Positions 23,786 through 24,227 of a stretch of 64,000 nucleotides of DNA are shown piece by piece. The stretch is from the NCBI RefSeq assembly GCF_002854065.1, contig NZ_CP024147.1. One strand, 5' to 3'. The translations under genes and the position numbers were made by a program. The notes beneath the pieces are model-generated. The model was not told where the DNA came from, made no database searches, and was given only the letters and a program-made list of their open reading frames with translations. Source of the DNA: Escherichia coli. Its GTDB lineage: Bacteria; Pseudomonadota; Gammaproteobacteria; Enterobacterales; Enterobacteriaceae. Positions within the stretch are counted from its first letter, which is position 1, and each line of letters starts with the position of its first letter.

Positions 23786-23869
23786 TCAGTTCAGAAGCTG
23801 AAGCAGAAAGCGGATCAGTTCCAGCAGCGCAATTAACGCCCCAAGAACGATGATTGCTTTATCAATCAC
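23786..23869 (-). CDS. dinQ: DinQ toxic inner-membrane peptide (27-aa form, GTG start) of the dinQ/agrB type I toxin-antitoxin locus
   Basis: Minus-strand translation VIDKAIIVLGALIALLELIRFLLQLLN* matches recalled DinQ; terminator hairpin at 23737-23768. Confidence 0.6.
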   Translation of the reverse strand: MIDKAIIVLGALIALLELIRFLLQLLN

Positions 23870-23936
23870 CCGTTTTCTCCATGCGATGGAGTGAGAATGC
23901 ATCCGCTTACTCATCCATTGCCTGTCACGGCGCATG

Positions 23937-24020
23937 CCCTATTGTTAGATAATGGCATTCTCACTCCGGCCAGAGCATCAGTTAACGGCACCACCCGTAC
24001 CACTGATCAGGACTTTGAAA
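23937..24020 (+). ncRNA. agrA: agrA-like sRNA repeat copy (boundaries approximate)
   Basis: ~35-nt direct repeat GTTAGATAATGGCATTCTCACTCCGGCCAGAGC shared with the copy at 24142-24177 and complementary to dinQ leader segment 23886-23903. Confidence 0.4.
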
Positions 24021-24134
24021 GCGTTTATGCGCATTGCCAGAGTGAAAATGCCTCAGAGCTAACTGGATAATCATACAGTATATTCAGGTTATAAAACCAG
24101 CATGTCCTTGCAATAGTTTCAGTATGGTATTAGC

Positions 24135-24227
24135 ATTGATGCGTTAGATGATGGCATTCTCACTCCAGCCAGAGCCACCAACTCAGGGCTGGAAAGTAAA
24201 AAAACCGACGCAAAGTCGGTTTTTTTA
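24135..24227 (+). ncRNA. agrB: agrB-like antisense sRNA (boundaries approximate) with intrinsic terminator at 24203-24227
   Basis: Second repeat copy plus hairpin ACCGAC-GCAAA-GTCGGT followed by T7. Confidence 0.45.

Follow-up and report, generated by a model that had tools for sequence, protein, structure and literature searches.

The 64,000-nucleotide stretch of Escherichia coli DNA analyzed here (the window) very probably carries the chromosomal E. coli dinQ/agr type I toxin–antitoxin module, in a common haplotype with a single antisense sRNA. The system is already well studied, and the allele is an ordinary and common one. The sequence-only reading had described the region as a dinQ/agrAB type I toxin–antitoxin locus; dinQ and agr were indeed found there, and intact, but with one agr gene instead of agrA plus agrB. 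The features of the region are collected in Table 1.

Table 1. Features of the dinQ/agr region and its borders, in window coordinates; positions with a plus sign or a base letter are counted from the dinQ transcription start
Feature	Position	Strand	Remarks
gor remnant	23717..23733	+	last ~17 nt, …GTGACCATGCGTTAA; K-12 homology begins at 23717
dinQ primary transcript	23735..24063	-	+1 = 24063, ~330 nt; published element coordinates fit
dinQ terminator hairpin, bidirectional (formerly of gor too)	23739..23769	-	12-bp perfect inverted repeat; terminator-like scanner match; identical to K-12
DinQ coding sequence	23786..23869	-	27 aa; GTG start 23867-23869, stop 23786-23788; same translation as K-12
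Start codon GUG	+195 = 23867-23869	-	published coordinate and sequence agree
Element 4	A182-G187 = 23877..23882	-	AUGGAG; identical to K-12
Element 3	U167-U178 = 23886..23897	-	UUCUCACUCCAU; pairs with element 4 (SD closed) or element 2 (SD open)
Agr target site in dinQ leader	23944..23976 = +88..+120	-	holds element 2 and the 9-nt hypervariable segment
agrB-binding region	G88-A119 = 23945-23976	-	from published coordinates
Element 2	G94-G106 = 23958..23970	-	GCCGGAGUGAGAA; inside the Agr target site
Position of +44 processing site	24020	-	K-12 coordinate transfer
Element 1	U16-C28 = 24036..24048	-	UUUUCACUCUGGC; identical to K-12; locks element 2 in the inert +1 transcript
LexA operator	24063..24078	-	CTGTATGATTATCCAG on the minus strand; overlaps the dinQ -10 region and +1
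Candidate second, weak LexA operator	24085..24100	-	CTGGTTTTATAACCTG; same sequence in K-12
agr promoter	24108..24136	+	-35 TTGCAA 24108-24113, 17-nt spacer, -10 TAGCAT 24131-24136; read from sequence
Agr antisense sRNA	24144..24228	+	85 nt; Rfam RF02891
Right-hand rearrangement junction	24341..24343	.	deletion of arsR and most of arsB; 112 nt past the agr terminator

Alignment of the window with the K-12 dinQ region, a check that had been suggested at the outset, established that the locus is homologous, with a mean column identity of 97% over 23700-24150. The minus-strand open reading frame that had been taken for an intact dinQ peptide (translation VIDKAIIVLGALIALLELIRFLLQLLN*) is K-12 dinQ letter for letter, and its product matched the NCBIfam equivalog model NF041472 (toxin_DinQ) with 54 bits against a cutoff of 30, so this part of the earlier description was borne out. 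The peptide also has the single transmembrane helix and the length of 27 aa that are traits of the DinQ toxin family. Among the 27 complete E. coli genomes fetched, 26 annotate DinQ as WP_001295215.1 and the remaining one, TOE17, as WP_097342224.1; the RefSeq identifier of K-12's own DinQ is YP_001165328.2. A longer open reading frame of 49 aa with an ATG start (23786-23935, minus strand) is present as well and is the historical prediction of the dinQ product. In K-12, dinQ translation begins at the GTG and not at the ATGs (PMC3567139).

With the minus-strand position 24063 taken as +1 of dinQ, the sequences at the published coordinates proved to be the published ones (PMC5066626). A search for a LexA box upstream of dinQ, likewise proposed beforehand, recovered CTGGATAATCATACAG at this start site, with one mismatch to CTGT-N8-ACAG and identical in the K-12 alignment. 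The window promoter carries the LexA operator that marks the DinQ/AgrB family, and LexA is predicted to bind it; the K-12 dinQ operator has been described with an HI of 4.83, and a second LexA operator lies near the first one in K-12 (PMC3567139). The exact site given for this second operator in Table 1 is a candidate of our own placing.

The dinQ leader showed the four-element 5′ untranslated region that would allow mutually exclusive 1:2, 2:3, and 3:4 pairings. Elements 1, 3, and 4 match K-12 in every letter, and the one difference from K-12 in element 2 is at +106 (A vs G). The Shine-Dalgarno (SD) sequence GGAG (23877-23880) lies within element 4, 7 nt upstream of the GTG, and the arrangement CUCCAUCGCAUGGAG-N7-GUG is that of K-12, with the SD inside the hairpin that elements 3 and 4 would form. 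Minimum free energy (MFE) folding of the window allele paired element 1 with element 2 in the +1 RNA, and in the +44 RNA it gave 10 of the pairs of duplex 2:3. Perfect complementarity between elements 2 and 3 extends over 13 bp in the window and over approximately 10 bp in K-12, the latter by our own reading of the K-12 leader. The SD accessibility predicted by MFE and partition function departed from the published SHAPE-supported model, even for K-12, the open and closed pattern not being cleanly reproduced for K-12 or the window; folding therefore supports the pairing of the elements but was not used as evidence on whether the SD is open.

Two direct repeats of 33 nt were found at 23944-23976 (repeat 1) and 24143-24175 (repeat 2), identical at 31 of 33 positions and 199 nt apart. 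By our own arithmetic, the chance of such a pair in an 800-nt region is about 1e-11. The sequence-only reading had reported two repeats of about 35 nt resembling agrA and agrB; the pair is real, but its members are not agrA and agrB. A perfect hairpin of 14 bp (24196-24209/24215-24228) and a U-run come after repeat 2 and are the clean terminator reported behind one of the repeats; no terminator was found after repeat 1. Repeat 1 was also considered as an independent agrA-like gene and rejected: it sits inside the dinQ leader without promoter, terminator, or covariance-model match, Rfam returning nothing for it even at E<=1 and a consensus scan finding no agr-type promoter upstream. Repeat 1 belongs to the dinQ transcription unit and constitutes the antisense target; this left copy is not an sRNA gene in K-12 or in the window. 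An inverted partial copy of the repeat had further been noticed in the leader and taken as a sign of antisense control. The copy is present at 23887-23900; its 14 nt are fully complementary to repeat 2, and for repeat 1 the complementarity spans 13 nt, but antisense control by Agr is not shown thereby. On the dinQ mRNA it reads GCAUUCUCACUCCA, in the same sense as Agr, and therefore cannot be the Agr target; it is the published element 3, which competes with Agr for element 2.

Several comparisons indicated how many agr genes are present. Rfam RF02891 matched the window once (24144-24228, 103 bits, E = 1.9e-18, full length, gathering score 40) and K-12 twice, and the K-12 annotation lists dinQ, agrA, and agrB between gor and arsR. 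By BLAST, window positions 23717-24242 are collinear with the K-12 stretch that reaches from the gor end through agrA, and positions 24125-24340 are collinear with K-12 agrB and its downstream flank; the 231-bp agrA-agrB tandem unit thus occurs once. The agrA-agrB spacer is absent from the window, so the K-12 arrangement of two tandem sRNAs 231 bp apart was not found, and a three-way alignment gave the window sRNA an agrA-type upstream and an agrB-type downstream flank. A canonical K-12-like locus whose two direct repeats are the agrA and agrB genes would agree with the two 33-nt repeats of agr 5′ sequence in the window and with the two agr genes that do exist in K-12. Yet repeat 1 lies at dinQ +88..+120, within the transcript and devoid of any agr-type promoter, terminator, or Rfam match, K-12 has three copies of the 33-nt repeat (target, agrA, and agrB) where the window has two, and one 231-bp unit is missing. 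The K-12-like reading is refuted by the Rfam count, the BLAST layout, the alignment, and the repeat count, and we consider it highly improbable.

The single sRNA folded at -34.2 kcal/mol (z = -6.4), with the antisense region (nt 1-32) in an unstructured 5′ tail, followed by an internal stem-loop and, at 24196-24228, a Rho-independent terminator; the antisense stretch comprises the unpaired 5′ 20 nt and the beginning of the first stem. The window thus holds a divergent, non-overlapping RF02891 sRNA with a Rho-independent terminator. By coordinate transfer, its start is the annotated start of K-12 agrA. Of the 54 bases upstream, 53 are shared with the K-12 agrA upstream region, whereas that of K-12 agrB differs at many positions. 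The variable segment of the window Agr, GATGGCATT, is of the agrA kind, K-12 agrA having GATGGCTAT. Judged by promoter and position, the sRNA is assigned as the orthologue of K-12 agrA. Naming it AgrB after the Rfam family was rejected, because K-12 agrA scores equally well with the Rfam "AgrB" model (106 bits, against 108 bits for agrB). The agr promoter scored 8/12 in a consensus scanner, below its threshold, and was not flagged, and the terminator was missed because an A/U-extended stem absorbs the U-run; both calls rest on K-12 identity, the Rfam structure, and the fold, not on the scanner.

We then compared the antisense pairing of the window with that of K-12 over 33 nt. Window Agr and window dinQ form 31 Watson-Crick pairs, one G·U pair (Agr G7 with dinQ U113), and one A·C mismatch (Agr A24 with dinQ C96), with an RNAduplex energy of -59.5 kcal/mol. 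K-12 AgrB and K-12 dinQ form 32 Watson-Crick pairs with one mismatch, at which the same A·C recurs, at -59.6 kcal/mol, and K-12 AgrA and K-12 dinQ form 26 Watson-Crick pairs, four G·U pairs, and three mismatches at -44.1 kcal/mol. The 5′ end of the window sRNA thus has near-perfect complementarity over about 31 nt to dinQ +88..+119, the region to which agrB binds in K-12 (G88-A119; PMC5066626). The pairs differ in a 9-nt segment, at 23951-23959 in the window target (AATGGCATT on the plus strand): K-12 target and K-12 agrB both have AAGAACTCT, and the window has AATGGCATT in the target and GATGGCATT in Agr. Because the 9-nt seed of Agr matches the strain's own dinQ target, the single agrA-positioned sRNA was judged, from complementarity, to be the probable cognate antitoxin in the window.

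K-12 AgrA does not bind dinQ usefully and does not block its translation, owing to its mismatches (PMC5066626), and the window sRNA shares the promoter and position of K-12 agrA. It could thus be a non-functional decoy of the AgrA type that leaves dinQ effectively without antitoxin, or the module could be decaying after the neighboring rearrangements; repeat-mediated loss does occur elsewhere, the target repeat being fused to an agr repeat by deletion, with loss of the promoters, in 807 of 5,426 complete genomes (15%). However, the failure of K-12 AgrA is one of mismatches, with the weak duplex given above, whereas the window target has co-varied with its sRNA and the duplex is as strong as that of K-12 AgrB. 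Decay, for its part, is contradicted by promoters, operator, SD, coding sequence, and terminators that are all intact. A decoy or a decaying module is therefore unlikely, and we retain the single Agr as the probable antitoxin of an intact module.

The distribution of agr copies was followed in 5,426 complete E. coli genomes, to which all population figures refer. The agrA-agrB spacer was found in 3,311 of them and two agr places in approximately 3,800. The arrangement of the window, one agr and an intact leader, occurs in approximately 14%, an inferred figure derived from the places per genome and a spread sample; a threshold of 80% coverage in one place was unfit for counting single agr genes, since the region upstream of agrB shares the promoter core and reaches 83%. 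The exact window haplotype (AATGGCATT target and single Agr GATGGCATT) also occurs in E. coli CUWW06, O157:H7 TR01, and Escherichia sp. E1V33, and E. albertii has a single agr too. All of the best 25 full-length matches were one-piece alignments without the 231-bp insert. Among metagenome contigs, 11 showed an apparent haplotype of K-12 target plus agrA only, which was absent among the complete genomes fetched; these contigs probably either are truncated or result from de Bruijn collapse of the tandem unit, and metagenome data were excluded from statements on copy number. Variation of agr copy number is not new, because the T1TAdb paper already records AgrA as present only "in some bacterial strains" (PMC8594479).

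These data also bear on whether the single copy is an artefact of assembly, a tandem duplication of 231 bp in the source genome having been collapsed. About 60 nt are identical between agrA and agrB, short-read assembly could in principle collapse a tandem 231-bp repeat, and the implausible metagenome arrays just mentioned resemble collapses or truncations. Nevertheless, a single copy was found in the independent complete genomes CUWW06, O157:H7 TR01, ET490, 2013C_3963, FDAARGOS_1253, and A24 and in other Escherichia species, and the lone Agr fits the target of its own strain, which is what a real, functional haplotype would show. We give an artefact very little credence and take the single-agr haplotype as real.

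The module had been said to be retained at the border of an island, and this proved correct: it is intact, K-12 homology resumes at the island/chromosome junction (23716/23717), and 22 nt separate this junction from the terminator hairpin of dinQ. Over 24.7 kb, E. coli CUWW06 shares 99.97% identity with the window; in that strain, an arsenic-resistance island of approximately 26 kb lies between gorA and dinQ, and gorA is found about 26 kb upstream with a 3′ end supplied by the island. The island genes include an ArsR/SmtB-type regulator with arsD-arsA-arsB-arsC, arsH, and a second arsD/arsA pair, and its right end holds an annotated site-specific integrase followed by two co-oriented genes for hypothetical proteins. 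Insertion took place in the last ~17 nt of gor, and an imperfect direct repeat is formed by GTTACCATGAGAGG at the gor end and GTGACCATGCGTTAA at 23719-23733. On the other side, the deleted arsR-arsB stretch corresponds to positions 2991-4676 of the K-12 comparison segment, and this deletion allele is common to several other complete genomes; farther on, arsC is interrupted by IS1 at approximately 24772, followed by a 5′-truncated dctR and then chuS. Neither the island, inserted at 23716, nor the loss of arsRB near 24341 has touched any element of the module.

The toxicity of DinQ, the processing at +44, and the repression by the sRNA through RNase III were established by experiments in K-12 (PMC3567139, PMC5066626), and that processing at +44 yields the translatable dinQ mRNA has been shown in K-12 alone (PMC3567139). 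For the window, the mechanism is a transfer from K-12 by sequence identity and would run as follows. LexA would repress dinQ, and DNA damage would give rise to the ~330-nt primary mRNA, which should be untranslatable while element 1 pairs with element 2 and element 3 with the SD element 4. Loss of the first 43 nt would free element 2 for element 3 and open the SD, upon which the 27-aa DinQ would be made from the GTG and inserted in the inner membrane as a toxin. Agr, presumably constitutive and transcribed divergently from dinQ without overlap, would pair through its unstructured 5′ ~32 nt with dinQ +88..+119, covering element 2. Its binding would displace element 3, re-close the SD hairpin, and direct RNase III cleavage.

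The 9-nt segment stood out from the rest of the transcription unit. In 34 distinct dinQ-leader sequences it was polymorphic at eight of its nine columns, with a mean entropy of 0.91 bits, and every other part of the unit had 0.00-0.13 bits. Across Escherichia, the segment co-varied between the target and one Agr copy. With the target AAGAACTCT (K-12, ETEC1732, and TOE17) or GTGGGCATT (MRSN346647 and FCI1), the best sRNA was that in the agrB position. With the target AATGGCATT (the window, TR01, ACN002, H19, NCTC9088, EC21, ET490, and 2013C_3963) or GACGACTAT (E1, E69, E. albertii, MS20654, and others), it was that in the agrA position, which in the latter group carries GATGACTAT or GATGGCTAT. 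Among strains with the AATGGCATT target and two agr copies, it is agrB that fits poorly, with six mismatches and -42.7 kcal/mol. By identity bands, approximately 2,200 genomes are >=95% identical to the window target region, and in these the agrA-position copy would match; approximately 1,900 fall into the K-12 band. This reading of target and sRNA held for each of the six genomes fetched from the 95-99% band and for the two from the K-12-type group. When targets were shuffled among 29 distinct haplotypes, the mean best-match distance was 4.12 ± 0.30, compared with 2.93 observed, a value reached by 1 in 10,000 shuffles in a test that ignores phylogeny and includes possibly collapsed metagenome contigs.

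These observations suggest that the 9-nt segment, in the 5′ tail of Agr and mirrored in the leader, may be a hypervariable specificity determinant, of which there may be at least four classes in Escherichia: AAGAACTCT, (A/G)ATGGCATT, GTGGGCATT, and GACGACTAT/GATGACTAT. As direct repeats whose transcripts come from opposite strands, target and agr would automatically regain or switch RNA complementarity through gene conversion, which may be the origin of the co-variation, an explanation that is our own. The repeats may also drive deletions, agrA with agrB giving a single agr and target with agr giving a promoter-less, dead locus. On the specificity reading, AgrA may not be degenerate but the cognate antitoxin in the window, as in about one third of sequenced E. 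coli, with AgrB the mismatched copy in the strains where AgrA is cognate. Tight linkage (199 bp) together with gene conversion could nevertheless yield the co-variation without selection. The whole of this reading, from the specificity segment and gene conversion among the repeats to a cognate AgrA and a mismatched AgrB in many strains, is in our judgment evenly balanced between right and wrong.

As found, the module is a well-characterized toxin–antitoxin pair that survived two neighboring rearrangements and matters little in itself. For annotation, the Rfam "AgrB" model cannot separate agrA from agrB, the number of agr genes differs between strains, and the true antitoxin copy is to be read from complementarity to the strain's own dinQ, not from position or name. 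The co-variation, with its switching of the cognate copy, is the sole part that might merit follow-up. Should it hold experimentally, the view of AgrA as a degenerate duplicate devoid of function would apply to K-12-like strains alone, and dinQ/agr would be a compact natural case of specificity switching in an RNA antitoxin.

Compared with K-12 dinQ-agrAB (Weel-Sneve et al. 2013, PMC3567139; Kristiansen et al. 2016, PMC5066626), the window module occupies the same orthologous place between gor and ars, is identical in DinQ peptide, GTG, SD, LexA operator, elements 1, 3, and 4, and terminators, and likewise has a divergent, non-overlapping sRNA with ~31 nt of 5′ complementarity to dinQ +88..+119. 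It differs in having one agr rather than two, with the promoter and position of agrA and yet a well-matched partner. Its 9-nt segment is AATGGCATT in the target and GATGGCATT in Agr, against AAGAACTCT in target and agrB and GATGGCTAT in agrA of K-12, and its surroundings differ in that gor is displaced by the ~26-kb island and arsR-arsB is deleted. The two-copy loci of ACN002, H19, NCTC9088, and EC21 share the AATGGCATT target and have the matching partner in the A position; they also carry a K-12-type agrB (AAGAACTCT), which is mismatched, the reverse of K-12. The dql (dinQ-like) loci of Enterobacteriaceae (Kristiansen 2016; PMC8594479) have the same 5′UTR architecture and repeat core, and one dql-like locus has its own variable segment, AAAGTTTGC, identical in target and sRNA; they encode other peptides (e.g., MVSLLIIVLRAVAALANALIAILELIRQFIE) at other genomic locations, whereas the window gene is a true dinQ. 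The system resembles tisB/istR-1, a comparison made in PMC3567139, in its LexA-controlled toxin mRNA that is inert until 5′ processing, its divergent, non-overlapping antisense sRNA, and its small inner-membrane toxin; the sequences of the two are unrelated, and control of dinQ works by the switching of mutually exclusive helices around the SD.

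When complete E. coli genomes were searched with the fusion junction as query, the target repeat of the dinQ leader, i.e., the Agr-pairing site, was found directly fused to an agr repeat in 807 of 5,426, including Nissle 1917. The fused allele lacks both the dinQ and the agr promoters, together with the LexA operator and positions +1 to +87 of the leader. The dinQ coding sequence remains annotated in these genomes as "damage-inducible type I toxin DinQ," and the dinQ/agr module looks transcriptionally dead. Furthermore, in a two-copy background, a deletion of 199 bp runs between the target and agrA repeats in E. 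coli CFIAFB20190157 and at a second locus (L020). It leaves dinQ with neither promoter nor LexA box, but agrB keeps a promoter of its own and persists as an orphan antitoxin. Such a deletion shows that the 33-nt target and agr repeats are recombinogenic.

The surroundings of dinQ in the window are rearranged as well. An arsenic-resistance island of approximately 26 kb is inserted within the last ~17 nt of gor, and an imperfect direct repeat occurs at both island ends. Of the three co-oriented ORFs at its right end, the first is the counterpart of an annotated site-specific integrase gene in CUWW06, an E. coli genome 99.97% identical to the window over 24.7 kb; in CUWW06 the other two are annotated as hypothetical. 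On the other side of the locus, arsC is the sole remnant of the native ars operon, arsR and most of arsB being deleted; this deletion allele is common to several other complete genomes, which carry arsC only. An IS1 takes the place of the arsC 3′ end; dctR/yhiF, too, is cut short at its 5′ end by this IS1, and because of this truncation slp and yhiS are missing.

Features of the dinQ/agr region and its surroundings (window coordinates unless another locus is named)
Feature	Coordinates	Content
Arsenic-resistance island	1-23716, extending upstream beyond the window; 5935-31700 in L011 (CUWW06)	
Island ars genes		ArsR/SmtB-type regulator, arsD-arsA-arsB-arsC, arsH, second arsD/arsA pair
Other island genes		IS2, DEAD/DEAH helicase gene
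Island right end	17413-18756; 18749-19789; 20469-22271	three co-oriented ORFs
Plus-strand ORF	23891-24070 (+)	59 aa
9-nt segment, target	23951-23959	
9-nt segment, Agr seed	24150-24158	
Native ars remnant to dctR/yhiF	24341-25555	
IS1	about 24772-25539	
Truncated dctR/yhiF	from 25555	
chuS-chuA		next after truncated dctR/yhiF
Fused allele, E. coli MCJCHV-1 (L097)	1126-1330	junction query, 1176-1250
199-bp deletion allele, CFIAFB20190157 (L009)	855-1250	
dql locus, metagenome contig L066	1820-2125	

A 59-aa ORF antisense to the dinQ leader overlaps the LexA box as well as the Agr target site. Its equivalent (174 nt) is annotated as "hypothetical protein" in some RefSeq genomes (e.g., WP_001297979.1 and WP_001296816.1), and it is probably a spurious gene call. 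Separately, a 424-nt contig filed as Acinetobacter haemolyticus (NZ_OVCN01000051.1, L013) carries an E. coli-type agr gene of the AATGGCATT type, most likely reflecting contamination of that assembly.

A dinQ-like (dql) locus, with the product …MVSLLIIVLRAVAALANALIAILELIRQFIE, was observed in two metagenome contigs (L066 and L094). It shares the repeat core of dinQ/agr and carries a fifth variable segment, AAAGTTTGC, identical between leader target and sRNA; this identity is independent support for target/sRNA matching within the family.

Within dinQ/agr itself, the 9-nt segment is hypervariable in both the target and the Agr seed, with an entropy of 0.91 bits versus 0.13 bits or less in the rest of the dinQ unit. 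Across the compared loci (L001-L107), the dinQ segment co-varied with its counterpart in one of the agr copies. Many strains with two copies, among them ACN002, H19, NCTC9088, and EC21, have agrA as the matching gene and a mismatched agrB, the reverse of the K-12 arrangement.
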